Positions 2,865-43,879 of a stretch of 64,000 bases of DNA are shown here, piece after piece (the stretch's first letter is position 1; each line of letters opens with the position of its first letter). Location of the stretch: the sequence record NC_052663.1. One strand, 5' to 3'. Source of the stretch: Escherichia phage VEcB. The translations under genes were made by a program, and so were the position numbers. The notes beneath the pieces are model-generated. The model did no database searches, had not been told where the DNA came from, and worked only from the letters and a program-made list of their open reading frames with translations.

Positions 2865-3344
2865 TTGGATAAAATGCTTACTGGCGTAATGGCCTATGAT
2901 CCTTCTCAAGTAATCCTGTCTTTGGGTGGTTGGGAACCTTGGGGTTTCGCCGCAGATACCAAAATTGTTATTAACAAAACTAACGATATCATCAACCCAT
3001 ATTCAGGTACTGATGGTGACGTTTCCTTGGCTCTTAGTCGTAACCGTTTAGGTACGCTAACAATGTCACTGCAACGTACTTCCCCAGCAAACGAAGTTCT
3101 TGCTGCTTATGCACAAACGATGTATTCTACTCGTCAAGTAGCATTTAGCGTATATCTAGAAGACCCTCGCGGATATTATATCAGCACAATTGGTTGGATT
3201 CAAAGTCAACCGGACGACACTATTGGTGAAACTATTCAAGAAAACCAATGGGTAATTGGTCTTAAAGATGCAAGCCTACTTCGTTCTACTGTAGGTGTTG
3301 GTGTTAACGCACTTAACTCTATTAGTGCTCTAACTATTCAGTAA
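2865..3344 (+). CDS. putative tail tube protein
   Basis: 159 aa directly after sheath; TTG start 6 nt after AAGGAG; flanked by terminators on both sides. Confidence 0.5.
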   Translation: MDKMLTGVMAYDPSQVILSLGGWEPWGFAADTKIVINKTNDIINPYSGTDGDVSLALSRNRLGTLTMSLQRTSPANEVLAAYAQTMYSTRQVAFSVYLEDPRGYYISTIGWIQSQPDDTIGETIQENQWVIGLKDASLLRSTVGVGVNALNSISALTIQ

Positions 3345-3348
3345 CAAA

Positions 3349-3375
3349 AAGGGCAGAAATGCCCTTTATTTTTAA
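3349..3375 (+). terminator. rho-independent terminator
   Basis: 7 bp stem AAGGGCA/TGCCCTT, GAAA tetraloop, then TTATTTTT. Confidence 0.6.
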
Positions 3376-3387
3376 AGAGAGGAAATA

Positions 3388-3870
3388 ATGGAACAACAAA
3401 AAGATAATACTATTGCAAAATTTGCTCGTCCAGAAGTAATGGTTGAAATTGATCTGGATGAAGGACGCAGTGTAAAATTTAGAGTTCTCAAGTGGAGTCC
3501 AACTAAAGTTTTTGAAAGGATTCCAGAACTAGGTAGTGTACTAGCTGTTCCTATGACAATGTATAATACTGCTCTTATGTCAGCAGACGAAGATCTAGAA
3601 GCTCGTATTGCTATGGCACTGATCCAATTATTCAGTGGTCTGGAAGAAAAAAACTTAGCCGCATTCTTACGTAAAATTTTAGATGAAGTTTACACAGAAG
3701 CAGGTCATAGTGTTTCCGATAATTTTGATGAATTGTTTTTTGCTCACCCAGAATTAGTTGTTGACTTAGCTGCAAAAGTTCTTGAGGTGAACTATGCCCC
3801 TTTTTTCAAACGAGGTTTCGGAAAACTGTTGACCCAATTTCAAGGAATAGAGACTCTAGCGAAGAGTTAA
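3388..3870 (+). CDS. putative tail assembly chaperone
   Basis: 160 aa acidic protein between tube and tape measure; assignment by position only. Confidence 0.4.
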   Translation: MEQQKDNTIAKFARPEVMVEIDLDEGRSVKFRVLKWSPTKVFERIPELGSVLAVPMTMYNTALMSADEDLEARIAMALIQLFSGLEEKNLAAFLRKILDEVYTEAGHSVSDNFDELFFAHPELVVDLAAKVLEVNYAPFFKRGFGKLLTQFQGIETLAKS

Positions 3871-3917
3871 GTCCGGCAATTAAATCAGCAATTGAAATTG
3901 CCTCACAAACCCTTAGC

Positions 3918-4145
3918 TTGACATGGTATGAAGTAATTCTTTGTAAGGTAATTAAGAATACCTCCGAAACCTTGTCCTCGTTAGATAATTACGGTGTAGA
4001 TTATCTACTTAAAATTTATGAATATTTAACATTTGAAGACTATGTACAAGATCTTCACGTTAAAGATGCGGATATTAAACGTGGTCAACAGAGAACAATA
4101 AGAGAACTGGATACGGCTATGAAAAAATTAATTCCAGATTCATAA
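3918..4145 (+). CDS. hypothetical protein (possible second chaperone ORF)
   Basis: 75 aa ORF immediately upstream of the tape measure gene. Confidence 0.3.
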   Translation: MTWYEVILCKVIKNTSETLSSLDNYGVDYLLKIYEYLTFEDYVQDLHVKDADIKRGQQRTIRELDTAMKKLIPDS

Positions 4146-4164
4146 GTAATACGGAGGATTACCC

Positions 4165-6144: not shown

Positions 6145-6151
6145 TGCATAA

Positions 6152-6180
6152 AGCCTCGCTTCGGCGGGGCTTTTTATTTG
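6152..6180 (+). terminator. rho-independent terminator
   Basis: 8 bp stem (one G-U wobble) with TTCG tetraloop followed by TTTTTATTT. Confidence 0.65.
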
Positions 6181-6182
6181 TC

Positions 6183-6212
6183 TTGACAAAGAGTTGTTTT
6201 TCGTGATAAAAT
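6183..6212 (+). promoter_or_regulatory. sigma70-like promoter TTGACA-N18-TAAAAT with TG extended -10
   Basis: Consensus -35 TTGACA at 6183..6188; TGaTAAAAT at 6204..6212; sits between terminator and next gene. Confidence 0.45.
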
Positions 6213-6259
6213 GAGTGATAAGGGAGAATGTTTCTTATCACATTAAGAGGTAAAATTAT

Positions 6260-6970
6260 ATGGCAGCAAACACTCCAGAACAACACGTTCAAGCGGTTTA
6301 TAAAGCGGAACAAGATATAAATTCTACAAAAAACACAAATAACTCTGCCTCTACTGTGAAAGGGGAGAATGGTTTTTGTATTTTAGCAAGTGTTTACAAT
6401 AGTGCAAGTGATCAATATATTCAAAACTACCAAGCTATAGTTTTTGATGCTGTTCCAAATATCGGTGTAAAACGTCAAGCAGATGTAACTAGTTATCCTG
6501 TAGAAAATGGAGCTAATGTATCGGATCACGTTCAAGTTAAAAATAATACTTTCTCTTTATCAGGAATGATTACAGAGACACCTGTAAGATTAATGCGAGA
6601 TATGCTATATAGTGCTGGTGTTAACGGTACTCGTATCAGTCAAGCAATTACTTACTTAGATAAAATATTTGATGAAAGACAGCCTATCATTTTAATAACA
6701 GAACATAAGGTGTATGAGAATGTTATTTTGAAAGGCATATCATATGAATATCAAACAGAATATGCAATGCAATTTGACTTGGAATTTGAACAAGTAAGAT
6801 TAGTTTCTTACGGGGAAACAAATGCTATTGCACTTAAGACAAAACCAAATAAGAATACAGGTGTTAAAAACAAGAAAGGTACTAGTCCAGATGCTGATTT
6901 GGATGCAAGAACAGGGAAAGCAACTGGTACAGAACATCTTAGTGATCACAGTGCAGATGGTAAAAAATAA
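6260..6970 (+). CDS. hypothetical tail/baseplate protein
   Basis: 236 aa ORF immediately after tape measure, where baseplate assembly genes usually start. Confidence 0.35.
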   Translation: MAANTPEQHVQAVYKAEQDINSTKNTNNSASTVKGENGFCILASVYNSASDQYIQNYQAIVFDAVPNIGVKRQADVTSYPVENGANVSDHVQVKNNTFSLSGMITETPVRLMRDMLYSAGVNGTRISQAITYLDKIFDERQPIILITEHKVYENVILKGISYEYQTEYAMQFDLEFEQVRLVSYGETNAIALKTKPNKNTGVKNKKGTSPDADLDARTGKATGTEHLSDHSADGKK

Positions 6971-6981
6971 GGAGAAAATTT

Positions 6982-7401
6982 TTGGCTATTTCATCTTATT
7001 CAAAGATCAGTAGAAGCACATCTAATAGTGGCTACAATGCAGTATTTATTGATCGAAATTTAGGTTATTATTCTTGGTACTTACCTACAGAACAGTACCC
7101 AGACCAAACATATACAGTAACTCTCGATGGAGTAGATTATGATATACGTTTGAGATGGAATACAAGAGATCAAGCGTGGCAAATGCAATTAGGATTATCA
7201 GGAGACAATCCTAGTGTAACTTTTAAAGTAACCAATGGTTTAGATCTTCTAGAACCATATAAGTATATAGAATCTGTACCGGATGGTCAACTCTATTTGG
7301 TAGATACTGTTAAAATAAACGGTAGACCTAATTACTATGACACAGGTGTAGATAAAAGATTTGCTTTGGTTTATATCGACGCTCTTCCATATCAAGCATG
7401 A
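6982..7401 (+). CDS. hypothetical baseplate protein
   Basis: 139 aa ORF in baseplate gene run. Confidence 0.35.
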   Translation: MAISSYSKISRSTSNSGYNAVFIDRNLGYYSWYLPTEQYPDQTYTVTLDGVDYDIRLRWNTRDQAWQMQLGLSGDNPSVTFKVTNGLDLLEPYKYIESVPDGQLYLVDTVKINGRPNYYDTGVDKRFALVYIDALPYQA

Positions 7402-7416
7402 TAAAAGGAGTTTTAA

Positions 7417-8427
7417 ATGGCAGAAAAAAGAGATTATACAAAAGCTCCTGCACCCAATCTAAACAGAGCATACAAACTGTTAATAGGTACAGCTACTAAT
7501 ACTAAAGAAAAAAGGACAAAAAATTCCTCTTTCAAATCTACAGTAGACTTAGATACTAAACTAGGGGATGCTAAAAAATCAACCCCTAATTTGTATGTTA
7601 TTACGGAGCACCAAATATCTTTCACAATAAGAAAAGATAATAATAAAGATCCTAATCAAGCCGAGATAACTATTTATAACCTAAGTGATGATACTGTTAA
7701 TTATATTAACAAAGGTATTCGTAACAACTTGGCTGTTGCTTTAGCGGTAGGTTATGAAGGTCAAGAGTTAATTATGATCTTTAAGGGAACGGTGCAATGG
7801 GTGAGTGATACGTTTAACAATACAGACAGACGTACAGTGTTACATTGCCTGGATGGTGGTATTAACATCTCCGAAGCAAGGACAAGCCGAAGTTATCCGA
7901 AAGGTACAAAAGTAAGTAAAGTTGTTAAAGACCTAGTTAAAGATTTAGGTACTACAGAAGGTAATATTCACGTAGACACAGAGAAAACTTTATCATCTGC
8001 AACAGCTATGTGTGGTAACACATCACATTACTTAGAAAGTATCTGTAAAGGTATTGATCACAATGTGTCGATACAAGATGGATCTGTTTACGTGACACCA
8101 AGATCACAAATGTCTAGTGCAAGATGTGCATATATTAGTGCAGAAACAGGTTTAATTGGTAGTCCAGAACCTTTCCACAATGATATTAAACCGACACAAA
8201 AAGTAACCAAATCTTCTAAGAAAGCTAAAAAGCCTACCGATGGTGTTAAGTTCAGATGTGAAATGAACGGTGCTATCTTACCAGAAAAAACTGTTTGGCT
8301 CAAGAGCCATAACTATGATGGTGGTTTTAAGGTGGTGTCTGTTGTTCATACAGGAGATAGGGAAGGTAAAGACTGGACAACTGAAGTAGAGTCTGTATCT
8401 GTATCTGCAATTATTAAGAAGGGCTAG
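7417..8427 (+). CDS. putative baseplate hub-like protein
   Basis: 336 aa; directly upstream of the spike gene; RBS AAAGGAG. Confidence 0.4.
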   Translation: MAEKRDYTKAPAPNLNRAYKLLIGTATNTKEKRTKNSSFKSTVDLDTKLGDAKKSTPNLYVITEHQISFTIRKDNNKDPNQAEITIYNLSDDTVNYINKGIRNNLAVALAVGYEGQELIMIFKGTVQWVSDTFNNTDRRTVLHCLDGGINISEARTSRSYPKGTKVSKVVKDLVKDLGTTEGNIHVDTEKTLSSATAMCGNTSHYLESICKGIDHNVSIQDGSVYVTPRSQMSSARCAYISAETGLIGSPEPFHNDIKPTQKVTKSSKKAKKPTDGVKFRCEMNGAILPEKTVWLKSHNYDGGFKVVSVVHTGDREGKDWTTEVESVSVSAIIKKG

Positions 8428-8429
8428 AA

Positions 8430-9167
8430 ATGGATGCTTTAAATTTTGTAACAGCAATCCGTGGATTAATCAACGAGCAAGTTGCGGAAGTACATACATC
8501 TTTACCTGTAAGGGTAATTGGTGTAGATTATGGATCTAAGACAGTAACTTTAGAATCTATTGTAAAAAACACCAGATCTACTGAAGATGAAATAGATTAC
8601 CCAACATTCCACGATGTTCCTTTTATGGTAAATGGTGGTGGTACAGGTAGAATTTCATTTCCAATTAAAGCAGGAGATATTGGTGTTGTTGTCTTTTCGG
8701 AAAGAGATCCGTCGAATGCTTTCCAGACAGATGGAGATACAGCCAGCAGCGGGACGTTAATTCAACCTTGTGGTTTATATCCAGCCTGTTTTATTCCTAA
8801 GATAGCAACAGCTACAGATTCTTCAGAAGAAGTAGATTCTGAAAAAGTTGTTATCTCAAATAATAAGCAAACTTACGCTTCGTTTGATCCTAACGGTAAT
8901 ATATCTGTGTACAACACACAAGGTATGAAAATAGATATGACACCAAACAGTATCGTTCTTACTGATGCAGGAGGAGGAAAACTTACACTGCAAGGTGGGA
9001 CTATGACATATAAAGGTGGCACTGTAAATTTAAACGGTTTAACAATCACACCTGACGGTCGTATGAAAGATAGTGGTGGCATTGGTTTACACACACATAC
9101 ACACCCTGTGCGCGGTGTTGAAACTGGTGGTAGCACTGTTACTTCCGACAAACCAAATGGAGGTTAA
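8430..9167 (+). CDS. putative baseplate central spike (gpV / Mu gp45-like)
   Basis: 245 aa; N-terminal OB-like segment, Gly-rich beta-strand repeats and a C-terminal HTHTHP His cluster typical of spike tips; position before the wedge gene. Confidence 0.55.
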   Translation: MDALNFVTAIRGLINEQVAEVHTSLPVRVIGVDYGSKTVTLESIVKNTRSTEDEIDYPTFHDVPFMVNGGGTGRISFPIKAGDIGVVVFSERDPSNAFQTDGDTASSGTLIQPCGLYPACFIPKIATATDSSEEVDSEKVVISNNKQTYASFDPNGNISVYNTQGMKIDMTPNSIVLTDAGGGKLTLQGGTMTYKGGTVNLNGLTITPDGRMKDSGGIGLHTHTHPVRGVETGGSTVTSDKPNGG

Positions 9168-9170
9168 CAG

Positions 9171-9806
9171 ATGGGAATACCATTTGATTTAAAACTTGAT
9201 GGTTCTAACGATTTAATAATGGTGGATGGTGATTTAACACTAACCACAACTAAAAGTGAAATTGCAGCACAGACGCTTGGAATAACACTTAGAACTTTCC
9301 GTGGAGAATGGTTCCTCAATTCTAATTTTGGGGTTCCATATCTACAAGAGATTATTGGTGTTGCCAAGAAGAAAGAGATTGTTGATCGCATTTTCTTATC
9401 AACTATCGCAAGTAATGTTTATATAGATAATATTAATTCATACACGTCCTCTTATGATAGAGATGATAGGTATTACTCAATGAACGTTACTGTTACAGTT
9501 GGTGAACAAGTTGTTAGTGCGCTGTTCAGTACGCAGCCGTCTGAAGAATATATCTATCCAGAAGCTGGTGATGATAATGCAGCAATCACTTGTGAAGCAT
9601 TTGAAATTGTTGAATCTGCAAATAGACTCTATCGCTTTATTAACATTGTTGGTCTTCCTAGAGATACTTATTCTACTTGGTGGAATGAATGGTCTAACGA
9701 GGCATTGATTGAAAAATACCTTGTTAACGAAGCCAATAAAGGTCTTGCAACCAATTACAACTATGCTATAACAGCAACAATGGGAGCTACAAATAATAAT
9801 GGCTGA
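9171..9806 (+). CDS. putative baseplate wedge protein (gpW / gp25-like)
   Basis: 211 aa; N-terminal segment TLRTFRGEWFLNSNFGVPYLQEI resembles the gp25/GPW family motif as recalled; P2-like order V-W. Confidence 0.5.
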   Translation: MGIPFDLKLDGSNDLIMVDGDLTLTTTKSEIAAQTLGITLRTFRGEWFLNSNFGVPYLQEIIGVAKKKEIVDRIFLSTIASNVYIDNINSYTSSYDRDDRYYSMNVTVTVGEQVVSALFSTQPSEEYIYPEAGDDNAAITCEAFEIVESANRLYRFINIVGLPRDTYSTWWNEWSNEALIEKYLVNEANKGLATNYNYAITATMGATNNNG

Positions 9807-10272
9807 TTTAACTACAATCAAGGTGTCTGATCTACCTGTAACAACATCTGTTTCAGACACAGATTATTTTGTAACAGATCAATCAGGCATCACTAAGAAA
9901 ACATCATTACGTGTTCTTCTTGCGGGTGCTGGTGTTACACGAAATCGTCTTTCTGCAAGGGGTACTGTCACAAATACCCTAGCTTTAGATATTAGCACGG
10001 CAGAGTATTTCTCTGCCACTTTATCTAGTCCAACTTGCAGTATTTCATTTAGTAATGTTCCAGTTACAACTAACATTGTTCAAAACTTTACTCTATCTCT
10101 ACGTCAAGGTAGTGGAGCAAATAAAGTAACGTGGCCTCAATCTGTTAAATGGAGTTTTGGTCGCGCTCCTGTTTTGAGTTATAAACAGGGAGCTACAGAT
10201 ATTTTTGAATTTGTTAGTTATGATAATGGAGCTACCTGGATAGGTAGTTTAGTGATGGCAGGAGTGATTTAA
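9799..10272 (+). CDS. virion protein with fibre-type N-terminal anchor motif
   Basis: 157 aa; N-terminus (DLP..S..DYFVTDQ....K.T) resembles the N-terminus of the tailspike at 15325. Confidence 0.4.
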   Translation: MADLTTIKVSDLPVTTSVSDTDYFVTDQSGITKKTSLRVLLAGAGVTRNRLSARGTVTNTLALDISTAEYFSATLSSPTCSISFSNVPVTTNIVQNFTLSLRQGSGANKVTWPQSVKWSFGRAPVLSYKQGATDIFEFVSYDNGATWIGSLVMAGVI

Positions 10273-13148
10273 TGTCAAGAATTAAGCACAGAATTGACAA
10301 TGTTTTTCAACTGATCGATGGACATATTCAGTTCTTAGATCGTAATACAGGTTTAACTGTAGATCCTACAGTGCAACACTATGTATTAAACCCACAAAAC
10401 GTTCTAGCTAATAACAGACACTTTATAAACTGGACTGCTCAAGAAGGGCAACCAAACGGGGATGCTACAACAGAAGGTCAATCCGTGCTTATTCTTGGTT
10501 GCGCTTATGCATATCTAGCTTCCGGCGATACAAAGTATTTAGACTCTGCTAAAAAATATTGGCAAGCCTATATAGATTACTTCTTTGGTGGTCAACCTAT
10601 CCCAGATCCGCCAGCAAAGTATCGCCCTAACTGGATTATTAACGGTAAAGAACCACGTCTTGCACACTATCCTCTTACAGATGATGGCTACCCTACACAC
10701 GGAGGTTTTAAGGGTAGCTTAATGACGTGGACTAACGGTAGAACAGTTATTCCTCATGGTGCTCCACATTGGGGAGAATACCTTGACAAAGCATGGTTTG
10801 CTTTTAATGGTAATCTAGGATGGAACTCTGTAAACGCTACAGTATATGCTGTTAATGCAGATGGAACAACAGATTGGTCTAAGAATGGAGATCAATGGGA
10901 CGTTGATTGGATCATTGATCGTCTAGGACGTAAAGTTGATTGGGATGGAAATATCTTAGAAGAAGGTTTTCCAACATCTCAATACGGAACAGTTCAACTA
11001 AAAAATACTTCTGTAAACGGTACATATAAATTTAACTACGCGACTTGTAACCCTGTTGAACACGGTGGTTATTTAATGGAGCGTAACACTATGTGGCATA
11101 ACAGACCAGTTAACGTTCCGGTAGAAATGGGCTTTCAGGATAATGCGTCAGATGCCGAAACTTGGTGGTGTGATGCTAATTACCTGATGTACCAAATTAC
11201 AGGAGAAAGAAAATATTGGCTATGCTGGCAGTCTTCACTGTTAGTGTGTCAAGATTACTCAAACATTGATATGTTTGATAAATTTTTCCGTAAGTCTACA
11301 TATGCAACTATTCCGTTTACAGATGGCATCTCTTACGATTATTCATATCCATCTACAGCAATACCTAAATATTCAAGAGATACTTTAGGCTATATTGTTA
11401 TTAGACAAGATGTTGCTGCTCAAACAACATTAGAACAGCAAGCCATTTGGTTTAAAGTTGATCAGAACTCTAAGTTACGAGTCCAGTTTCAAGGTGTAGA
11501 TGACGCAGGACATGGTATTCTTTTCCGTCCAGAGTTGGAATTAAGTAAGACCAAAGATGAAAATAACACAGTAACTTACCGCTGTGGCTTACCACTAGGT
11601 ACAGCTAATATGACAAGCATGGATATTCCACTATCCAGCTTTATGAGAAGTACCCCTCCTAGTGGTGGAACATATATTATCGCAGATCCGCGAATTATTG
11701 TTGACTGGGGTGACAATACTGTGGTACAATATAAGTATGTAACAGGTATTGCTGGAACTAATAATGACCAGATTGTTACTGCATCAATGGATACGGATGG
11801 TGGTGTTACTGTTGGTTTTTGGTTAACTCCTACATCAAAAGCTAATGTTAAGTCTATTACATATAGAACATATGAAGATGACTTTAACATGACTATCACG
11901 GATGCTCAAGGTTGGAGATGGTGGGCTATGCTGCCTAAAACGCAAGGGGCATGGAGTACGAAGACTTTATCAGCCTCTGCTTTTAAGTTAAGTGCTTACC
12001 AGCCTAATCATCCAGAAACAGATCCTAAACCTTCAGCAATAAATCTTACTGCTGTAGATCAGGTAAATTTAGTTCTTGATACGGCTCCTGTCAATGGTTT
12101 AACAGGAACAATAGATTTCTATTGTATTAACGATGTACCTGAAAGATATTCGTCATCTTCTGGTGATGATTATACCATGTACTTCCGTATTACTGTACAG
12201 GCTTCAAGTCCTCATACTGCTAAGTTAGGTGATTGTACTATTATTGACTATAAGTTAAATAGTCTTAATTACACACCAGGAATAATTCCATTCTCTAATA
12301 TCAGTGACCCAAACACTGCATTATACGATGGATGGCGTGGTATTCCATACCCAGGATACCAGTATCCTTCCTTATACTGTTTCGCAGGTAGGGATATTGA
12401 TTGGACACGTTTAAACAACAGTATTGATTTCTTGTATGATGCTCAAATGTGGTTTTATAACACGTTTGATCCTGTGATGCCTGGGCCTATGGCACAAGCA
12501 TATGTGTGGGATCGTTGGGATGCAAGAAAATACGGTGAACCTAATACGTTTACAATGAAACACTGGAATGAAAAAGCGTGGGATGGTTATGAAGCTCGTG
12601 CATTCTACTGTGCTTGTCATGCTGTATACGAACTTGTACAAAGAGGAGAAACACCTCCTGAAAAACTAGTAACTGTTTGTAAAAATTGGATCAACTACCT
12701 TAAATGGTTCCAAGACAATAATGATGGAAGAACACCAACTATCTTTAATCCAGATGGTACAGTTCTTGCACCTATAGATGACTTTACTAGTCATATGTCT
12801 GCACTGTTTATGGCGGGTTGTTCAATCATGGGCTTGGCAGGTTATGATTCACAAATTCCAAACATTGGTATTGTAGCAGACAGATGTTTTGATCTGATTC
12901 AGCAAAACTATATTGTGCTTTCCCCTAACCATCCGATGAATGGTTCCTGGAGTGTTGCACCACGCCCAGATTCAGATAACGGAATGTTCTTTGGTTTCCA
13001 TGCTGGAGAACTATTACGTGGTTTTGGTTTATATGCCTTGTATCGTAAACTAAACCCTCAAAACGCTTTACCAATTTTGGATAATAGTAACATACCAACA
13101 CTAACTGTTCTAACTATGAATGATATTAGTGTTGATGTAACCAAATAA
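10272..13148 (+). CDS. large virion (baseplate/fibre-associated) protein
   Basis: 958 aa ORF; start overlaps the upstream stop (ATGTC/TAATG-type coupling); Trp/Tyr-rich. Confidence 0.4.
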   Translation: MSRIKHRIDNVFQLIDGHIQFLDRNTGLTVDPTVQHYVLNPQNVLANNRHFINWTAQEGQPNGDATTEGQSVLILGCAYAYLASGDTKYLDSAKKYWQAYIDYFFGGQPIPDPPAKYRPNWIINGKEPRLAHYPLTDDGYPTHGGFKGSLMTWTNGRTVIPHGAPHWGEYLDKAWFAFNGNLGWNSVNATVYAVNADGTTDWSKNGDQWDVDWIIDRLGRKVDWDGNILEEGFPTSQYGTVQLKNTSVNGTYKFNYATCNPVEHGGYLMERNTMWHNRPVNVPVEMGFQDNASDAETWWCDANYLMYQITGERKYWLCWQSSLLVCQDYSNIDMFDKFFRKSTYATIPFTDGISYDYSYPSTAIPKYSRDTLGYIVIRQDVAAQTTLEQQAIWFKVDQNSKLRVQFQGVDDAGHGILFRPELELSKTKDENNTVTYRCGLPLGTANMTSMDIPLSSFMRSTPPSGGTYIIADPRIIVDWGDNTVVQYKYVTGIAGTNNDQIVTASMDTDGGVTVGFWLTPTSKANVKSITYRTYEDDFNMTITDAQGWRWWAMLPKTQGAWSTKTLSASAFKLSAYQPNHPETDPKPSAINLTAVDQVNLVLDTAPVNGLTGTIDFYCINDVPERYSSSSGDDYTMYFRITVQASSPHTAKLGDCTIIDYKLNSLNYTPGIIPFSNISDPNTALYDGWRGIPYPGYQYPSLYCFAGRDIDWTRLNNSIDFLYDAQMWFYNTFDPVMPGPMAQAYVWDRWDARKYGEPNTFTMKHWNEKAWDGYEARAFYCACHAVYELVQRGETPPEKLVTVCKNWINYLKWFQDNNDGRTPTIFNPDGTVLAPIDDFTSHMSALFMAGCSIMGLAGYDSQIPNIGIVADRCFDLIQQNYIVLSPNHPMNGSWSVAPRPDSDNGMFFGFHAGELLRGFGLYALYRKLNPQNALPILDNSNIPTLTVLTMNDISVDVTK

Positions 13149-35179: not shown

Positions 35180-36952
35180 TTAATAAGAACCATCAGGAAT
35201 ATTCTCTGGGTTACTTGTGTATTGATCGTAATCGTGAAGTGTAGCTGTTTTAATCTCATAGAAGAAACTACCTGCTGCACCAGTCTCTGAGAACTCACGG
35301 TTCTTTAGAATGTAGCAATATGTGCGGTTACGTTCCATAGGATCTTCAGCTTGTTTATCACGCTCCAGCGCAATTGTGATACCAGCACCTTTAGCAAGGA
35401 AGCTACTACCCATTGCATCATCTTCTACAATATGTTCATTACTATTGTTAGAAGACTTTTTAACGTGTGAAATTACAACAATGGTTATTGCATACTCTTT
35501 CATAATGCGTTTCAGCCACGTCGCAAGTTCCTCTTGTTGTGACACGTCCATACCAGAAAGCAAGTCAGAATAAGGGTCGATAACAAGAATGGTTACTCCG
35601 AAATAAATAATCATTTCCAGAACCTTCTCTTTAATCACATCTACGTTAGCTCCACGATCATCACAAACATAGAAACGTGGTGTTCCATCTTCTCGTTCGT
35701 AAAAATCACGAATCTTTTCTTCATTATCTTTTAAAATCTTTTCCTTCTCTTCTTTCGTTTTACGGTGAAGAGGGATATGCAAGAATGAAGACAGTAAGTT
35801 ACGAGAATACTTCTTATACGTTGCCTCCAAAGATAAAATACCAAGAGTATGTTCTGGGTGTGCAAGAATAATGTGTTTCGTAATCTCGTTAACCAACAGT
35901 GTCTTACCGATACTTGTTTTTGCAAGTATAACAGTAATTTCTTCTTCTACCAAGCCTCCACCTAACATATTCGAAGCAACACGCATGAATGGAGGAAGGG
36001 TGATCATTTTAGCTTCCAGGCATTCCAAGGCTGCTTCATATAGTACGTTAGAAGCGTAAACACCAGCAGGTGTGTACAGTTTAGCTTTGAAAAAGCGATC
36101 AATAAAATGATCAATTTTTCCTTCTACTAGTGCCTGGTTAGGATCTTTAACATCCGTTAGTTCCATCACGTAAACTTTATTACGTGGTAAGATTTTAACA
36201 CATTTCTCAACTGCTGCACGTCCAGCTTCATCATTATCCATACATAGAACAATCTTTTTAAATTGATCTAAGAATTTATAACGATGTTGAAGCTGCTTAT
36301 GCAGAGATGTTTCGCCACAAGTACCAGATACTACAGCAGGAACAGGATATTTACCACCCTTGTTATAATCTTTTAGCATCTGTGTTGCAGCCAGCATATC
36401 GTGTTCACCACCAACGATTAGAATAGTACCGCTGTGGTTACGATATTTAAACTCCCCAAAAAGATCACAATCCTTTCCTGTTTCACCGATAGGATGTGAG
36501 AAATCTTTTGGATCGATACGTTGTTTATACCCAGCAATATTGTAATCTTTAGTTGTAGGGTATAGTGTTGAAATTACTTCGCCAGTAGCTTCATCGTACA
36601 TATAACGTACACCGAAAGGCTTAGAGATATCTTCACGAATACCGCGATAACCTTTTGGATTAGTTCCAGTGCTGGCTTTTAGTTTATCATGTACTTCTGG
36701 ATTAAACTCACTACCCAAGATATCCTCCTCTTCAATTTCTTCGCCGTGTGCATTTAACCATTTTTGATCAGGGATAGTAAAGCCACAAGAAAAACAATGT
36801 GCGCCTCGATGGTCTTCATCGGCATCTAAGCCATATACCATCAAATTGTTTTGTGATCGATCACGCCCTCCTTTCATACAACGAGGACACCCAGTATGTC
36901 CTTCTTGACTTAGATCAATGTTATACCCATATTTATTTACAACATAAGACAC
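35180..36952 (-). CDS. bifunctional DNA primase-helicase (T7 gp4-like)
   Basis: 590 aa; GTG start with AGGAG RBS; N-terminal zinc ribbon CPRC...CFSC, central TOPRIM-like region, C-terminal helicase with Walker A AKTSIGKT. Confidence 0.8.
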   Translation of the reverse strand: MSYVVNKYGYNIDLSQEGHTGCPRCMKGGRDRSQNNLMVYGLDADEDHRGAHCFSCGFTIPDQKWLNAHGEEIEEEDILGSEFNPEVHDKLKASTGTNPKGYRGIREDISKPFGVRYMYDEATGEVISTLYPTTKDYNIAGYKQRIDPKDFSHPIGETGKDCDLFGEFKYRNHSGTILIVGGEHDMLAATQMLKDYNKGGKYPVPAVVSGTCGETSLHKQLQHRYKFLDQFKKIVLCMDNDEAGRAAVEKCVKILPRNKVYVMELTDVKDPNQALVEGKIDHFIDRFFKAKLYTPAGVYASNVLYEAALECLEAKMITLPPFMRVASNMLGGGLVEEEITVILAKTSIGKTLLVNEITKHIILAHPEHTLGILSLEATYKKYSRNLLSSFLHIPLHRKTKEEKEKILKDNEEKIRDFYEREDGTPRFYVCDDRGANVDVIKEKVLEMIIYFGVTILVIDPYSDLLSGMDVSQQEELATWLKRIMKEYAITIVVISHVKKSSNNSNEHIVEDDAMGSSFLAKGAGITIALERDKQAEDPMERNRTYCYILKNREFSETGAAGSFFYEIKTATLHDYDQYTSNPENIPDGSY

Positions 36953-36964
36953 AGGATTCTCCTA

Positions 36965-37234
36965 CTAAAATGATTCGTTTGTCTCCATAATATATTGCAT
37001 TTCCAAATCTTCCATATGTTTCTTAAATTGGTAAACAATTTCCGATGGGGAAATATCTATATCAAAAAGGTCTTTTGTACCAGAATAAAACCTAATACCA
37101 TCAACAATAAGACCACCATAATAATCCCAATCACTTTCTCGTGAGAAAGGGTTAGGTTCTTCATAATAGTAATCTACTTCAACAATAATAGGTTCTTTAT
37201 TATCTTGTTTATACTCAAAATCAAAAGTGTGCAT
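36965..37234 (-). CDS. hypothetical protein
   Basis: 89 aa acidic ORF. Confidence 0.3.
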   Translation of the reverse strand: MHTFDFEYKQDNKEPIIVEVDYYYEEPNPFSRESDWDYYGGLIVDGIRFYSGTKDLFDIDISPSEIVYQFKKHMEDLEMQYIMETNESF

Positions 37235-38178
37235 TATAAATCCTCGATAAGCAGTCTGCGGGTTTCATTTAAATCATCAATATTGTAGTTATCTCTTACA
37301 TACTTAGCAAGAGCCAATCCTTTCTCAATACAAACATCAGGGGATTCGATTAAGTATTCTACAATATCTTTCCACTCTTTAACTGAATCAGCAAAGAAGA
37401 TTAGATCTTTAAATTCTTCAGTATAATAGTTCTCTCGTGGCGAACAAACGAGTGGCAAACCTTTAGCACCAGCTTCAAGAATTTTTAAATTACTTTTGGC
37501 ATTATTAAAATGATTATTTACTAATGGAGCTATGGAGATTTGATGACCATCGTATGCTTCCATATAACACTCATAAGGACGAATACCTTCATAAACACAA
37601 TCTGGTTGAATATTTTCTTTAATTTGCAACCATTGAGCACTACTTAACTCTTCGTGATCTCTACGAAATCCACATAAAGTTAAATCTTTACCAAAATCAG
37701 GAAGAATTGCTAAATCATGTTTATGTGTTTCACTTCCCGCCCAAACCAGTGGACTTTTAGAATAACGATCTTTAGTAAGAACAAACTGTCCTTCATCAAA
37801 AGGTAGTCCGTTAGGCACAATATGTACATTATCATTGTATTGGCTTAATTCAACCTTTAATGCCGGAGTTGTTGTAGTTACAAGATCACTTCTTTCAAGG
37901 AACCATTTTAGGTCATCTCGGATTTGATTTTCAAATAATCCTTCAAGCATATGCCCTTCAGGAATAATTAAAGAATCATCCAGATCCATTACCAATTTAA
38001 ACCCAAGTTGTTTAAGAGCCAGGAAACCTGGCTTTCCACGTGTTGGTACTCCATTGAACACAAAAATATTATGCTTAGGATTAATGGTCAGTTTGCGTTT
38101 ATATGGCAAAATGATTCTATGAAAATCACATACACTATACTTTTCATTTCCGCGTGTGTCAAGAATAATATTAGGCAT
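37234..38178 (-). CDS. putative glycosyltransferase (GT-B-fold-like), paralog 1
   Basis: 314 aa; C-terminal motif KSNLKILEAGAKGLPLVCSP resembles the sugar-donor-binding signature of GT-B enzymes; clear paralog of the next gene. Confidence 0.5.
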   Translation of the reverse strand: MPNIILDTRGNEKYSVCDFHRIILPYKRKLTINPKHNIFVFNGVPTRGKPGFLALKQLGFKLVMDLDDSLIIPEGHMLEGLFENQIRDDLKWFLERSDLVTTTTPALKVELSQYNDNVHIVPNGLPFDEGQFVLTKDRYSKSPLVWAGSETHKHDLAILPDFGKDLTLCGFRRDHEELSSAQWLQIKENIQPDCVYEGIRPYECYMEAYDGHQISIAPLVNNHFNNAKSNLKILEAGAKGLPLVCSPRENYYTEEFKDLIFFADSVKEWKDIVEYLIESPDVCIEKGLALAKYVRDNYNIDDLNETRRLLIEDL

Positions 38179-38189
38179 ATAGCTCCTTA

Positions 38190-39164
38190 TTAAAGACTTT
38201 CAATAACTTGACGACGCAGTTCATTAGCATCTGCAAGATTATAATTAAGACGAACGTGTTCTGCAAGCATCATACCACGATCTTCTGTGTATCTAGGGTT
38301 CCTCATTAGCTTGACAACTTCATAATGCCAAGATGCTTTAGAGTCTGCATAGATAACAGCCTTTGCATCTACCGGATTGAAGTACGGCAGCACAGGAGAA
38401 CAGATAATAGGAAGACCCTTTGCACCTGCTTCCAAAATCTTCAAATTGCTTTTACAGTTGTTGAAGTCATTATCTACCAGAGGAGCAATTGCAATACTGT
38501 GACCGTCATACACAGACATATACTCACCTAAATTTTTAATAGCTGGTTTATACTGTGCATTTGGAATTTTACGTTTTACTTTAACCCACTCCGCAGTAGT
38601 TAGATACTGACTATTATTTCCAACAGGTGCAGAAGGATACACTTCATACCCTGCAATTGTCAATAGCGTATCATCAAATGTATTAGCTACAAGAGATAAA
38701 TCAGGTTCATGGCTTGCTCCTCCCGCCCAAATAATAGGCGTGTCAGAATAACGGTCTTTTGTCAAAGTAAATTGACCTTCGTCGTAAGGTAGTGCGTTTC
38801 TAATAACGACAACATTACGATTTAAATGACGAATTTTGTAAGCTAGGTATTCTGTTGTTACAGTAACCACATCTGCTAACTTAATCATCTCTACAATAGT
38901 CTTTGAGTGATTAGTAAATACGCCAGCCATATAATGTTCAGGATTAAGCGAATAAAAATCATCTAAATCAACAATAATCTTAACACCTTGTGCCTTCAGG
39001 CGTTTAACTTCGTCTGATCCACGAGAATACACTCTATTAAAAACTAAAACGTCTTTCTTAGGTTTAAACGTATTTCCAGCAAATGGCATTACAATACGAT
39101 GGTAATCACAACCACTGCCTAACTTATTATCACACTTAAGTACAGGAGTATTAGGATTTACCAT
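38190..39164 (-). CDS. putative glycosyltransferase (GT-B-fold-like), paralog 2
   Basis: Start set at ATG 39164 (GAGGAGG RBS; aligns with paralog 1 N-terminus MPNIIL/MVNPNT); shared motifs CD(F/Y)HRI, IAPLV(N/D)N.FNN.KSNLKILEAGAKGLP. Confidence 0.5.
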   Translation of the reverse strand: MVNPNTPVLKCDNKLGSGCDYHRIVMPFAGNTFKPKKDVLVFNRVYSRGSDEVKRLKAQGVKIIVDLDDFYSLNPEHYMAGVFTNHSKTIVEMIKLADVVTVTTEYLAYKIRHLNRNVVVIRNALPYDEGQFTLTKDRYSDTPIIWAGGASHEPDLSLVANTFDDTLLTIAGYEVYPSAPVGNNSQYLTTAEWVKVKRKIPNAQYKPAIKNLGEYMSVYDGHSIAIAPLVDNDFNNCKSNLKILEAGAKGLPIICSPVLPYFNPVDAKAVIYADSKASWHYEVVKLMRNPRYTEDRGMMLAEHVRLNYNLADANELRRQVIESL

Positions 39165-39837
39165 ATTTTTGAGCCTCCTCATAAGAGATAAAAGTTTTAC
39201 CATTGCGAAGATCCTCCAGGGATTGTTTATATTGTTCCCAGTTTACACCAATCCCCTGTTCTTTCTCTTCTTTTGACAGATTCGCAAAAGGTAAAGGATT
39301 GTCTCCAAATACATCATCAGGATGGATAAACGCCATAATTCGAATAGGACATGGTACGCCTTGAATACCTCGGTTCAAACCTGCCAGTGGGACGCGATGA
39401 ATCCACTCTGCATCTTCATACCCATAGCCGTGGGTGTATGAGCGGAAATAGCCAGCTTTCTCAATAACTGCACGGGAATACATACCAAACTGGCACATTC
39501 CTAGCTCCCAAATAACCACTTCCCCTTCAATACCTTTTACTTTATCTTTAAAGTATTCAGGCATACCAAAGAAATCCCAACCATTTTCCTTCGCCTGTTT
39601 TACAAAATATGTTTCCCAACCTTGAACAACAGGATAGCAATCATCATCAAAAATAAACCAGTAATCATATCCTTCATCATAAAACTTTTTCATCAGTTCA
39701 TTACGAGCATATGCAACACCTTTTCGTTCCCGATCATACTGTACAACAAAAGTAGCACTAGGATCAGTCACAAGATAATCTTTAAGAGGACGCTTACCTA
39801 CAGTAATAACACCAACACCAATTTTTGTATTTTCCAA
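39151..39837 (-). CDS. putative glycosyltransferase, GT-A fold (family-2-like)
   Basis: 228 aa; N-terminal GVGVITVGKRP nucleotide-binding start and acidic DDD motif FIFDDDCYP typical of GT-A glycosyltransferases. Confidence 0.55.
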   Translation of the reverse strand: MENTKIGVGVITVGKRPLKDYLVTDPSATFVVQYDRERKGVAYARNELMKKFYDEGYDYWFIFDDDCYPVVQGWETYFVKQAKENGWDFFGMPEYFKDKVKGIEGEVVIWELGMCQFGMYSRAVIEKAGYFRSYTHGYGYEDAEWIHRVPLAGLNRGIQGVPCPIRIMAFIHPDDVFGDNPLPFANLSKEEKEQGIGVNWEQYKQSLEDLRNGKTFISYEEAQKYGKS

Positions 39838-39846
39838 AATAACTCC

Positions 39847-40410
39847 TTAAATAATTTTATTCATGTCTTGACAATGTAAAAGGTGTGAAACAGCTTTTCT
39901 AGGATCATCATTACCTAAACGGTATGTGTGAAATAAATATAACCCACGTAGTAAACCTAGCCTTTTATTGTTAGCGTGCAATGCTTTAGAGAAAATTATA
40001 TCAAACTGTATTGATCTTTCCTCAAAAGGAATTTCATTCCACAGACTCTTACGAAAGAGAAGAAAGAATCCTGCTAAGATAGCATCTGTAGGTACTTCCT
40101 CTATTGAGTTTCCCCATTCTAGATGTGCTCTTTTTGCAATCTCAATGTGGTGTAATATATTCGGATCTTCACTTCTTTCATTATTAAATAATTGATATGT
40201 TGATCCCAATCTGTTACAAGATGCACCAAGAACATCAAAATCAGGATTTGAACGGACAATTGATTCCAGCCAAGCAGGTTGTTCTGGAAGAAGAAACATT
40301 GTATCAATGTCTCTTAGGCAAATCCAACTATCTTCTGGTAAGACACTTATTGTGTCATTGATACCTTTTCCAATATCTCCAGAAAGATAGGGAGTTATGT
40401 GAAATATCAT
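39847..40410 (-). CDS. hypothetical protein, possible GT-A-like glycosyltransferase
   Basis: 187 aa; ICLRDIDTMF DxD-like motif; adjacent to three glycosyltransferase genes. Confidence 0.35.
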   Translation of the reverse strand: MIFHITPYLSGDIGKGINDTISVLPEDSWICLRDIDTMFLLPEQPAWLESIVRSNPDFDVLGASCNRLGSTYQLFNNERSEDPNILHHIEIAKRAHLEWGNSIEEVPTDAILAGFFLLFRKSLWNEIPFEERSIQFDIIFSKALHANNKRLGLLRGLYLFHTYRLGNDDPRKAVSHLLHCQDMNKII

Positions 40411-40467
40411 ACTCCCTCCGTATTATTACTTTAGCATTTTTAGACTAAAAAGTCCAAATGGTTTTAC

Positions 40468-40662
40468 CTATTGATTACGTTTTGCGAGTTCCATTTGGAT
40501 AGCTAAACTGTGATCTCGTGCTTCCATATACTCTTTATATGTTTCATTAAGATGATCACGACAAACATCACGCAGTTTAATCAGCTTATCTGTAGGGATA
40601 CCACTAAGATCATCCCAAGATTTTACAACTTCACCAGTATCATTGATCCCAATGGTTTTCAT
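40468..40662 (-). CDS. hypothetical small protein
   Basis: 64 aa ORF. Confidence 0.3.
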   Translation of the reverse strand: MKTIGINDTGEVVKSWDDLSGIPTDKLIKLRDVCRDHLNETYKEYMEARDHSLAIQMELAKRNQ

Positions 40663-41158: not shown

Positions 41159-41668
41159 TTAGCGATAGAATTGATGTTCTTTGTAGCGGTACACTAGAAC
41201 CATATCTTTTTCCCAGTGTGCTCTTATTGTAGATTTTTTAAAGTATAATGCTCCTTTTGTAATATCTAATGCAATTCGTAATTCTGGAAAATGCGTATCG
41301 AGATAAAGCAGACGTTCTGCTATAGCCTTAGCTTCCTTCCACTTATCACGTTCCATAACGTTGAATGTCTTTGTGTAAGAGAATTGTCCTTTTTGAAACA
41401 AAACTTCTTTTATAGTATCAGGGAAATATGAATCTCTAGCCCTATTTAATACTACATTACCAACAGCAGACATACCGCGCTTTCCTTGATTACGACTTTC
41501 TGCATAGATTGCACAAGCTAATAGATTTTCTTTACTATCACGCTTTGTACACTTGTGAACTACTTTAGCAGTTTTTACGTTTGCAGCTTCGGCTTGCGCC
41601 ACGACAGGTGTAAATGTAAAAGCAGTTAAGGATAGTAACGCAATTGCGACAAAGGTTTTTATTGACAA
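41159..41668 (-). CDS. secreted cell wall hydrolase, SleB-like (Hydrolase_2 family)
   Basis: 169 aa; TTG start 5 nt after AGGAGG; N-terminal signal peptide (AIALLSLTAFTFTPVVAQA); SleB-like core LLACAIYAESRNQGKRGMSAVGNVVLNRA...DTIKEVLFQKGQFS. Confidence 0.6.
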   Translation of the reverse strand: MSIKTFVAIALLSLTAFTFTPVVAQAEAANVKTAKVVHKCTKRDSKENLLACAIYAESRNQGKRGMSAVGNVVLNRARDSYFPDTIKEVLFQKGQFSYTKTFNVMERDKWKEAKAIAERLLYLDTHFPELRIALDITKGALYFKKSTIRAHWEKDMVLVYRYKEHQFYR

Positions 41669-42415: not shown

Positions 42416-43012
42416 TTACTCGAACCAATCGTCGCCAGCGCCAAACGCTTTAACTACATCATAAATGTCAAGTCCAGCTTTACCTACACCATATGCTTTC
42501 AGTTTCCATTCGCTATCTTCCCGTACCAGGGAGGCAACGTGGCAAATGGTATTACCTGCAAGTTCTGGAGCCAAGAAGTCAAAATCCAGCAGTTCAACGT
42601 TACGTTCATCATCGAAGATTTTAAGGAAACCTTCGGTAGCGTGACCAAGGCGTTTCTTACCCGTTTCGTCATCAATAGTGATTACGAATGCAATTTCCTG
42701 TGCTTCAGCAGAGATATTACCCAGTGTAACATCAATCTGCTCCATCTGTCCTACACCATCACGAACATCTTCACCTGCAAAAGTAGAACGTTCAGGATCA
42801 AATTTCTGTGCGTAGCATACCAGGTGGCGAGGAGACAACAGTTCCGGCAGACCAGATGCATTGTGTCGGCAAATCAGAGCACTAACATCCAGATCCAGTT
42901 TTTCGTTAGATTTCCAAGAGAATTCCAGACGAATGCGTTTCAGTGCTGGTGCAATCTTTTTCAGAGAAACTTTTTCGCTAGAACCTTTTTTCAGGGAAAT
43001 TTTCTGAGTCAT
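42416..43012 (-). CDS. terD: TerD-family protein
   Basis: 198 aa; N-terminal SLKKGSSEKVSLKK, DLDVSALIC, IAFVITIDD and C-terminal SEWKLKAYGVGKAGL closely parallel conserved TerD blocks; AAGGAG RBS. Confidence 0.8.
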   Translation of the reverse strand: MTQKISLKKGSSEKVSLKKIAPALKRIRLEFSWKSNEKLDLDVSALICRHNASGLPELLSPRHLVCYAQKFDPERSTFAGEDVRDGVGQMEQIDVTLGNISAEAQEIAFVITIDDETGKKRLGHATEGFLKIFDDERNVELLDFDFLAPELAGNTICHVASLVREDSEWKLKAYGVGKAGLDIYDVVKAFGAGDDWFE

Positions 43013-43049
43013 AATTTATTATCTCCTTTGTTGTTAATTTACGTTATCT

Positions 43050-43077
43050 ATTTTACTAATCTTTTCTACAAAGTCAA
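43050..43077 (-). promoter_or_regulatory. sigma70-like promoter TTGACT-N16-TAAAAT (minus strand) upstream of terD
   Basis: -35 at 43072..43077, -10 at 43050..43055 (minus-strand reading). Confidence 0.45.
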
Positions 43078-43084
43078 GCGTTTT

Positions 43085-43879
43085 TTACGCTTTTGCTCCG
43101 AATTTTTTAACCCACTCGCCAAACTCTTCGGATAGCAGTTTATCGTAAAGTTCTTCGTCAGACAAGGACAAATCTGCAATACCGATAAAGTCAACGTTAT
43201 CGTATTCTTTTGCCAAGTCTTTCAGGAATTTAAAGTTTGCATTACCTACACCAACCATAAACCAGTAAACAGGAGTGTTGCGGTGTTTGTTCAGCAAACT
43301 ACGTACTGCTGAAGTATCCATGTTCTCCCCGTCAGTTTGGAAGAAAATCATTGCAGGAGTACGATCAACTTGTGCATCAGTATCTACAACCTGTTCTACA
43401 ACAGTACGTGTAACTTCTACAAGTTCTTTTTTACCAGTCAGTTTAGCAAGGAAACCCTTAGCCGGAACTTCTTCATACTCAACGACTTCGCGTGTAATAT
43501 TTTTCATAGGTACACTACCGAAGTATGTATCATAGATCTCTTGCATTACTGGAGCATAAGCTGTACCACCATTGATGCAAATGTTAGACATGCAAGAGCC
43601 GACATAATCATCATATACATCAGCCGTTGCAGGAGGCAGTTCAAAAGAAGAACTATTGAAAGCCCACATGTCAATCTGTGCATTATCATCAAACTTCATA
43701 CCAAACGGCAGCAGTTTACCTACAAAATCACTAACAGTGCCATCACGATATAGCTCACACATACTACCCGAAATATCTAAGGCGCTACCGACACGAAGAA
43801 CAACATCGTTAATCTTTTTCTTACGCAGAGATACAGTAAGAGTTTCTTGACGTTTTTTAAGACTGATTTTATTGGACAT
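43085..43879 (-). CDS. vWA-domain protein (TerF/TerY-like)
   Basis: 264 aa; TerD-like N-terminal SLKK..TLTVSLRKK start followed by vWA MIDAS motif DISGSM and downstream Thr/Asp metal-site residues. Confidence 0.55.
   Translation of the reverse strand: MSNKISLKKRQETLTVSLRKKKINDVVLRVGSALDISGSMCELYRDGTVSDFVGKLLPFGMKFDDNAQIDMWAFNSSSFELPPATADVYDDYVGSCMSNICINGGTAYAPVMQEIYDTYFGSVPMKNITREVVEYEEVPAKGFLAKLTGKKELVEVTRTVVEQVVDTDAQVDRTPAMIFFQTDGENMDTSAVRSLLNKHRNTPVYWFMVGVGNANFKFLKDLAKEYDNVDFIGIADLSLSDEELYDKLLSEEFGEWVKKFGAKA

Follow-up and report, generated by a model that had tools for sequence, protein, structure and literature searches.

Phage- and virus-encoded glycosyltransferases (GTs) are known to act on very different acceptors. 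The T-even coliphages encode two GT-B enzymes, the alpha-GT and the beta-GT, as well as the GT-A enzyme TAGT, or beta-glucosyl-HMC alpha-glucosyltransferase (HMC, hydroxymethylcytosine); these are expressed with replication genes, need 5-hydroxymethyl- or 5-hydroxy-cytosine from a dedicated enzyme, and protect the DNA from restriction while exposing it to type IV enzymes. The chlorovirus PBCV-1, with its A064R rhamnosyltransferases, and Mimivirus encode sugar-nucleotide synthesis, including that of rhamnose, and cytoplasmic GT-A enzymes for their own capsid or fibril glycans. In the mycobacteriophage Che8, the glycans are reportedly O-linked at C-terminal Ser/Thr residues of capsid and tail-tube subunits (Freeman et al. 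2023). Phage-encoded clusters of soluble GTs decorate the capsid and tail-tube proteins of mycobacteriophages, and gp110 of Che8 is reported as essential for capsid glycosylation (PMC12363180, PMC11256854). Here we analyzed a stretch of 64,000 nt from Escherichia phage VEcB (accession no. NC_052663.1), hereafter the window, that contains a cluster of four genes, GT1 to GT4, and confirmed that their products are glycosyltransferases: two GT-B paralogs and two mutually unrelated GT-A enzymes. The explanation that we favor, at about even probability, is that this module O-glycosylates the phage's own head proteins and is fed in part by phage-made dTDP-L-rhamnose. This redirects a published idea, in which DNA was the acceptor, to the capsid; the genes were already known and, as far as our searches show, the capsid hypothesis is new for coliphages. 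If it is true, glycosylated virions would, to our knowledge, be reported for the first time from phages with Gram-negative hosts.

The four genes are consecutive minus-strand open reading frames (ORFs), arranged head to tail and filling exactly positions 37234–40410, with an overlap of 53 nt between GT3 and the start of GT2 (Table 1). An initial annotation, made from the letters of the sequence alone, had proposed at this position four GT-like genes, two of them GT-B paralogs and one or two GT-A, between the primase-helicase and early genes; its coordinates are exact, the cluster is indeed flanked by the primase-helicase on one side and by small early ORFs on the other, and the GT identity is supported by motifs, profiles and folds, the GT-A enzymes being two, GT3 and GT4, each with an invariant DxD. 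Positions 37000–40500 of the window are 100% identical in nucleotide sequence to Escherichia phage vB_EcoM_ESCO9 (OM386654.1; Justusliebigvirus, phi92-like) and 97–99.8% identical to 54 other records of Justusliebigvirus, and GT1–GT4 correspond to phi92 gp163–166. RefSeq and several submitters already label the four ORFs as glycosyltransferases, and the BASEL annotation designates two of them "putative disaccharide synthase" and the other two "putative glycosyltransferase"; NCBIfam gave zero matches for any of the four, and a literature search found no paper testing the function of the four-gene cluster. None of the four products contains a hydrophobic or transmembrane segment and all are predicted to be soluble. 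GT2 is basic (isoelectric point 8.9) and GT1 (5.2), GT3 and GT4 are acidic, values that are uninformative because the polymerase and the primase-helicase are likewise acidic. Scans for promoters, terminators and T4-type late promoters remained at chance level, so that nothing was learned from them on timing.

Table 1. Coordinates of the glycosyltransferase cluster and of other features mentioned in the text (positions in the window unless noted otherwise)
Feature	Coordinates	Strand	Description
GT1	37234..38178	-	GT-B (GT4-like) glycosyltransferase, 314 aa; derived copy of tandem duplication
GT2	38190..39203	-	GT-B (GT4-like) glycosyltransferase, 337 aa; ancestral-type copy, conserved partner of GT3
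GT3	39151..39837	-	GT-A glycosyltransferase, 228 aa, TTG start; FDDD and YGxED motifs
GT4	39847..40410	-	Minimal GT-A glycosyltransferase, 187 aa, DxD...H motifs; candidate rhamnosyltransferase
Small acidic ORF, 89 aa	36965..37234	-	phrog_4240, SDWDYYG motif; between GT1 and primase-helicase
Primase-helicase	35180-36952
169-aa protein	41159-41668	-	Signal-peptide-like N-terminus; among early genes just past the GT cluster
Ter stress module	42416-43879 onward to ~49000	-	Eryne L002 47620-49083 and L003 330-4189
rmlB, rmlA, rmlC, rmlD	ESCO9 8470-11731 (outside window)		Beside ribonucleotide reductase

In the mechanism that we propose, four soluble, cytoplasmic Leloir GTs would form a glycan-assembly module with a conserved core of GT3 (GT-A) and GT2 (GT-B), GT4 as a frequent third member and GT1 as a lineage-specific duplicate of GT2. 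The product would be a short oligosaccharide, O-linked to Ser/Thr residues of the major capsid protein (MCP) and the decoration protein, at their C-termini or adjacent to them. The donors would be host UDP-sugars together with dTDP-L-rhamnose, supplied by an rmlBACD operon that the phage encodes outside of the window. The acceptor, the order of the sugars, the presence of rhamnose among them and a role in immune shielding or stability are what we infer from the comparisons below.

Blast comparisons revealed that GT1 and GT2 are 41% identical (BLASTP, E 5e-83) and share the motifs quoted in the initial annotation, CDFHRI/CDYHRI and IAPLV(N/D)N.FNN.KSNLKILEAGAKGLP. Both proteins match phrog_7162 end to end (E 1e-145 for GT1 and 4e-149 for GT2), and GT1 also passes the gathering score of Pfam Glyco_trans_1_2 (PF13524), with 26.8 bits for a cut-off of 25. 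Across an alignment of 33 members of this GT-B family, Glyco_trans_1_4 (PF13692) was matched by 26, Glyco_trans_1_2 by 22 and PF00534 by six, and the N-terminal Glyco_transf_4 domain by seven (best E 1e-5; GT1, with E 0.0012, falls below threshold), while the family profile retrieved from the PDB weak matches to the GT4-family structures 5i45, 3c4q, 2xa2 and 8dvz (E 0.007–0.1). Residues K228, S229, K232 and E235 of KSNLKILEAGAKG are invariant in all 33 sequences, with identities down to 22%; the invariant K and E are located in the KSNLKILEAG motif of the family, a stretch that we take, from general knowledge, to be the EX7E-type donor-binding region. Judged by sequence, GT1 and GT2 are GT-B fold, GT4-like Leloir glycosyltransferases. 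GT1 is the derived duplicate, because the single-copy GT-B homologs of more distant phages always score higher against GT2 than against GT1. In one deposited genome, OZ035770.1 ("Justusliebigvirus alia"; L049, 45596–48986), the GT-B pair is collapsed to an in-frame chimera of the N-terminal domain of GT2 and the C-terminal domain of GT1, leaving three GTs; this equals the loss of window positions 37812–38691, with the junction in the conserved LP(F/Y)DEGQF..TKDRYS and recombination inside a common stretch of 108 nt.

The two remaining proteins matched phrog_2456 (GT3, E 3.5e-79) and phrog_14179 (GT4, E 5.5e-113), and GT4 had no match in Pfam. The invariant residues of GT3, among 19 sequences, are D64, D65 and D66 of F-D64-D65-D66 and Y138-G139-x-E141-D142, and those of GT4, among 27 sequences, are D34, D36, H161, Y163 and R164 (H161-x-Y-R), and H176. 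Structure prediction, suggested in the initial annotation as a check, was run on both proteins and the two AlphaFold models turned out to be GT-A: Foldseek matched GT3 (model confidence, pLDDT, 88.9) to the GT-A proteins A197 of Sulfolobus turreted icosahedral virus (STIV), COLGALT1, WrtF, vaccinia H3 and TarP, and GT4 (pLDDT 93.2) first to the Listeria dTDP-rhamnose transferase RmlT, a modest match (E 2e-4, TM-score ~0.48, 13–16% identity), and then to LARGE1 and LH3, the significant PDB matches of both models being GT-A enzymes throughout. The models thus identify GT3 and GT4 as GT-A fold DxD glycosyltransferases. No sequence relationship was detectable between GT3 and GT4, and sequence and profile searches of the PDB with the two families gave nothing meaningful. 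The best PDB match of GT3, STIV A197 (E 1.6e-5, 20% identity over 136 columns), is like GT3 a small viral GT-A but belongs to an archaeal virus, and its acceptor is also unproven; the STIV capsid protein is glycosylated. Giant-virus GTs are among the best structural matches of GT3 in BFVD, although the giant viruses differ from this phage in their eukaryotic hosts, in the GT families involved, in their atypical N-linked glycans and in the lack of any sequence-level relationship.

Two of these structural neighbors, TarP (a prophage-encoded GlcNAc transferase of wall teichoic acid, near the GT3 fold) and RmlT (the Listeria rhamnosyltransferase of wall teichoic acid, which uses dTDP-rhamnose, near the GT4 fold), act on cell-wall polymers, and many lipopolysaccharide (LPS) and cell-wall transferases are found among GT4-family GT-B enzymes. 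They bring up the possibility, which we consider clearly unlikely, that the GTs and the phage dTDP-rhamnose act on the host envelope, at the LPS core, the enterobacterial common antigen (ECA) or undecaprenyl-pyrophosphate-linked GlcNAc (Und-PP-GlcNAc) intermediates, so as to mask or alter the receptors that the phage itself uses (ECA/NGR glycan, LPS core glucose) and thereby exclude superinfection, or to keep progeny off debris. RmlC/RmlD and ECA synthesis would draw on one pool of dTDP-4-keto-6-deoxyglucose, which we count in favor of envelope remodeling, and the phages do need the surface glycans that depend on wecB and waaC/waaG (PMC8594841). The similarity to TarP and RmlT is limited to TM-scores of only ~0.45–0.5 and 12–16% identity, and their substrates are ribitol-phosphate polymers that do not occur in E. 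coli. Against envelope remodeling, no flippase, polyprenyl-phosphate transferase or membrane GT lies alongside the four soluble enzymes, and the BASEL authors deem complete surface modification within the lytic cycle to be futile (PMC11990801). Finally, the same three GT families are found together, as a module, in the head operons of phages from Actinobacteria, Bacteroidota and Proteobacteria, whose envelopes differ.

The distribution of the module is the first line of evidence that points to head proteins as the acceptor. Phages of the genus Phapecoctavirus (phAPEC8-like) have all four genes in unchanged order, with ~70% nucleotide identity, and more distant large myoviruses contain GT4, an RmlB-like 4,6-dehydratase gene, GT3 and a single GT-B gene, followed by an ORF of ~85 aa, the primase-helicase and PolA; GT3 and GT2 homologs are adjacent or overlapping in eight of 11 distant loci from IMG/VR. 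Three scans of this database yielded 65 loci with GT3 or GT4 homologs, which were reduced to 43 non-redundant groups. In nine of these groups, all Stephanstirmvirinae-like, the module adjoins the primase-helicase and PolA. Among the other 34 groups, 16 have a terS, terL, portal or MCP gene no more than 3 kb from the module, and 23 have one no more than 10 kb away; for replication genes the corresponding counts are zero and one, in a landmark search in which head-gene queries outnumbered replication queries; the positive adjacency to capsid genes is independent of this imbalance. Eleven groups have the MCP gene directly before the module and are arranged as portal, MCP, GT3, GT-B, GT4, or nearly so; two of these were confirmed by Pfam. 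Annotated genomes show comparable arrangements, with a GT between portal and protease/MCP in Cellulophaga phage phi18:2, and an epimerase, a methyltransferase and a GT just before terL in Streptomyces phage KimJongPhill; one individual locus has a GT-A and GT-B pair just upstream of terS. Relatives of GT4 are also found in larger glycan cassettes that include GLF, GT2, deacetylase, Methyltransf_24, DegT and GT-D, one of them located between terminase and portal.

The second line of evidence comes from the C-termini of the capsid proteins. In nine of ten mutually distant lineages, the MCP adjacent to the module ends in Ser or Thr. A scan of IMG/VR with a single MCP as query allowed a comparison among 60 close relatives of one module-adjacent MCP (66–100% identity): the nine that have the module all terminate in Thr (...APTT, ...AAT), whereas a terminal Ser or Thr is found in none of the 51 that lack it, most of which end in ...TP and all of which have 3 kb or more of sequence downstream (Fisher p 7e-11, for a module-bearing set of one or two clades). 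The GT-bearing coliphages, Justusliebigvirus and Phapecoctavirus, have an MCP ending in ...VVKLTTA and a decoration protein ending in ...VVFTS; those of the rV5-like phage FFH2 end in ...VVKATLKGE and ...LGEE, respectively, and no GT3 matches were found by tblastn in Vequintavirus, the genus of FFH2. This contrast among coliphages is suggestive only as support for a C-terminal acceptor signature.

Other acceptors were considered at this point, namely a host or non-structural phage protein modified for takeover or anti-defense, an RNA such as a phage tRNA, or a small molecule linked to the tellurite-resistance (Ter) genes nearby. The cluster is in an early/middle gene block, terD lies 2–3 kb upstream of it in those Stephanstirmvirinae-like loci that reach far enough, and sequence alone cannot reveal an acceptor. 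Additionally, the only named bacterial homolog of the GT-B enzymes, a 411-aa protein of Burkholderia dolosa (35% identity; L007 contig, 3025–8440), has a gene that directly follows those for an invasin/intimin-type adhesin and a 571-aa unknown protein, a context that hints at adhesin glycosylation. Nevertheless, the Ter genes do not travel with the module outside of the Stephanstirmvirinae-like lineage, there is no positive pointer to any particular alternative, and such acceptors would account neither for the adjacency to capsid genes nor for the Thr residues at the capsid C-termini; we regard this class of acceptors as rather unlikely.

The third line of evidence is a connection to the mycobacteriophage cassettes. 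Using tblastn, we found a GT3 homolog in 347 mycobacteriophage records (E<=1e-3), and the GT3 family aligned with residues 18–234 of gp98 from phage TChen, its N-terminal GT-A domain (hhalign 99.4%, E 3e-21). Gene 98 of TChen is two genes from gene 100, whose product is 52% identical to Che8 gp110. Che8 gp108, gp109 and gp110 are not specific homologs of GT1–GT4, and comparison ruled them out as direct counterparts: hhalign gave probabilities below 1% for the GT4 family against Che8 gp110 and for the GT3 and GT4 families against TChen gp100, and the GT-B pair differs in fold from Che8 gp110. In common with the mycobacteriophage cassettes, relatives of GT4 have Methyltransf_24 enzymes beside them. 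The mycobacteriophage cassette immediately precedes the terminase genes when the two ends of the genome are connected. Unlike the Che8 system, the locus described here has GT-B enzymes, a dedicated dTDP-rhamnose pathway, a Gram-negative host and a location on the replication side.

A source for one of the donors is present in the same genomes. The rmlB-rmlA-rmlC-rmlD genes of ESCO9 (Table 1) are likewise found in 54 Justusliebigvirus records, and RmlB, RmlC and RmlD were confirmed with Pfam and NCBIfam in phage Eryne; furthermore, the RmlB-like 4,6-dehydratase gene of distant relatives is embedded in their GT cluster, beside GT4. A deletion of ~557 bp in Eryne (L004 15716–17026, outside the window) has left RmlB fused with the C-terminal half of RmlA, phage "cardinal" is missing most of its rml genes, and Phapecoctavirus ESCO37 is without rmlA and rmlB. 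The three phages retain the full GT cluster, so the coupling between the rml and GT genes is not obligate.

Several points weigh against head proteins as the acceptor. In this phage the cluster adjoins replication genes and not head genes, and the near absence of replication neighbors elsewhere is biased because more head than replication queries were used. The Fisher p overstates independence, because the module-bearing MCPs represent one or two clades, and the contrast among coliphage C-termini is between two lineages and a single other one. The connection to the proven Che8 system is through a variant cassette only, because homologs of gp108–110 are lacking. The tail sheath of Justusliebigvirus (ORF 1399–2805) has an S/N-rich C-terminal tail (window 2755–2805), ...NRTANSQNSNSSTVSS, which was rejected as an acceptor since it does not co-occur with the cluster: the sheath of Phapecoctavirus ends in ...NRTAN, without such a tail, though the GT cluster is present. 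Lastly, literature searches gave no experiment showing glycans on any Stephanstirmvirinae virion.

Taking these points into account, we also put forward a wider proposal, which we hold to be slightly less than evenly probable: a widespread and hitherto unrecognized module of three families (GT-A, GT-B, GT-A) would O-glycosylate C-terminal Ser/Thr residues of the capsid, and in phi92- and phAPEC8-like coliphages it would have been moved beside replication genes, with duplication of the GT-B gene and a supply of dTDP-rhamnose. Phages of Justusliebigvirus and Phapecoctavirus are often isolated, have a broad host range and are included in therapeutic cocktails; their virions would then have a rhamnose-containing glycan coat. 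Glycan coats of mycobacteriophages reportedly change antibody binding and neutralization, so glycosylation of the head would bear on the pharmacokinetics, immunogenicity and engineering of therapeutic phages and on how the immune system sees them. It would also define a recurrent GT module, present in many viral contigs, for which a Thr/Ser at the end of the capsid protein is the predicted mark of the acceptor. If head-protein glycosylation is wrong, what is left is a conserved pathway of four enzymes with a dedicated sugar-nucleotide operon.

The initial annotation had instead favored stepwise glycosylation of modified bases in the phage DNA, with glycosylation of virion proteins as a caveat; the former is not supported by our results, and the caveat has become the better-supported reading. 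With DNA as the acceptor, rhamnose or other sugars would be added stepwise to a modified phage base, perhaps at a minority of sites, and we consider this highly improbable. Olsen et al. (2020) already proposed rhamnosylation of hydroxymethylated nucleotides (PMC7552041). The location of the cluster next to the primase-helicase and DNA polymerase, and of the rml operon among nucleotide-metabolism genes, agrees with this idea, although the replication-gene context is specific to the Stephanstirmvirinae-like lineage. The phage also encodes C5-cytosine and Dam-like methyltransferases, and phage-encoded modification pathways have been described for arabinosylated cytosine, with an implied supply of sugar nucleotides for DNA modification (PMC13390438).

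Enzymes that could prepare the base were searched for in the window and in the complete genome of Eryne, which is 99% identical over the cluster. Using phmmer with an E. coli ThyA query, we found no ThyA-type hydroxymethylase at E<=0.9 among 867 ORFs from both; the earlier statement that no base-hydroxymethylating enzyme is visible in the window therefore holds and extends to the Eryne genome. The recommended search for dCMP/dUMP hydroxymethylase or thymidylate-synthase homologs thus returned no ThyA-family ORF, and the thymidylate-synthase-like proteins of Eryne comprise divergent ThyX only. TET/JBP enzymes were absent from the Eryne annotation and from 20 further Eryne proteins scanned against Pfam. 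The ThyX-like gene of Eryne (L004 22582–23553, outside the window) adjoins genes for a thymidine kinase and an NT5C-like nucleotidase and encodes a 323-aa "thymidylate synthase" that is very divergent (Pfam Thy1, 36.9 bits; TIGR02170, 35.5 bits for a cut-off of 87.9) and whose real activity is putative.

A similarity of GT3 to TAGT was examined as possible evidence for a DNA acceptor. Weak matches to Pfam TAGT (PF20691) were found in 17 of 19 sequences of the GT3 family (best E 1.5e-4), and GT3 matched phrog_842 (E 4.5e-5). However, the TAGT match of GT3 itself reaches 22.1 bits, with a cut-off of 27.5, and covers only residues 26–79, a stretch of ~55 residues with the DxD inside it; the organisms named in the GT3 tblastn (E<=1e-3) include no T-even phages, and no DNA GT is among the top 50 structural matches of GT3 in BFVD. 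We discarded this match as evidence: although family-wide, it stays below threshold, does not extend beyond the DxD region and is weaker than the relationship to the mycobacteriophage GTs.

Published restriction data and the composition of the DNA also argue against DNA as the acceptor. HincII cuts ESCO9 DNA, whereas, in the same study, the three phages with HincII-resistant DNA included the Tequatrovirus ESCO58 (PMC10269720). Maffei et al. (2021) described the phi92-like phages Bas60–62 as "exceptionally susceptible" to restriction-modification systems despite their GT and sugar machinery (PMC8594841), the opposite of the T-even phages. Additionally, BREX lowers Pau and PATM, which are 98% identical to the window over the GT cluster, by seven orders of magnitude, and these two phages are listed as BREX-sensitive, apart from the 13 restricted by BrxU, a modification-dependent type IV enzyme whose substrate is DNA with 5-methylcytosine, 5-hydroxymethylcytosine (5hmC) or glucosyl-5hmC (PMC8565348). 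Of the 49 6-bp palindromes testable in the window, 13 do not occur (median observed/expected ratio 0.77, p 8e-12), compared with none of 46 in a piece of T4 of equal size (median ratio 0.99). The 145-kb genome of Eryne contains no sites for HindIII (AAGCTT), PstI (CTGCAG), KpnI (GGTACC), BamHI (GGATCC), ScaI (AGTACT) or PvuII (CAGCTG), with 18–45 of each expected, and it also lacks CCATGG and CGATCG (12–45 expected for each of the eight sequences); GATC is not avoided, and the phage encodes a Dam-like methyltransferase. Such a strong avoidance of palindromes is the pattern expected of restriction-exposed DNA. DNA modification of low density, or specific of certain sites, may nonetheless occur.

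The 89-aa ORF between GT1 and the primase-helicase was considered as a component of the module, either carrier or acceptor. Its conservation at this site is restricted to the large-myovirus lineage, and it is missing beside capsid-adjacent modules; it is therefore probably outside the module and, from its distribution, probably a lineage-specific companion of the replication genes. On the other side of the cluster, the 169-aa protein with a signal-peptide-like N-terminus (Table 1) is annotated as an endolysin in Eryne, and is distinct from a second endolysin and from spanin genes located elsewhere in the genome. A few kb from the GT cluster there is a tellurite-resistance-type stress module with TerD, vWA-TerF-like, TelA and TerC, two genes of which are mislabeled as HNH endonucleases by PHROG-based annotation.

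Several records labeled "Campylobacter phage", with C. jejuni as host (MG065656.1, MG065639.1, MG065689.1, MG065645.1 and MG065650.1), closely match E. coli Justusliebigvirus/Phapecoctavirus, four of them at 97–99% nucleotide identity and B15 grouping with Phapecoctavirus at the protein level. The Campylobacter phage labels or the hosts of these records are probably wrong.

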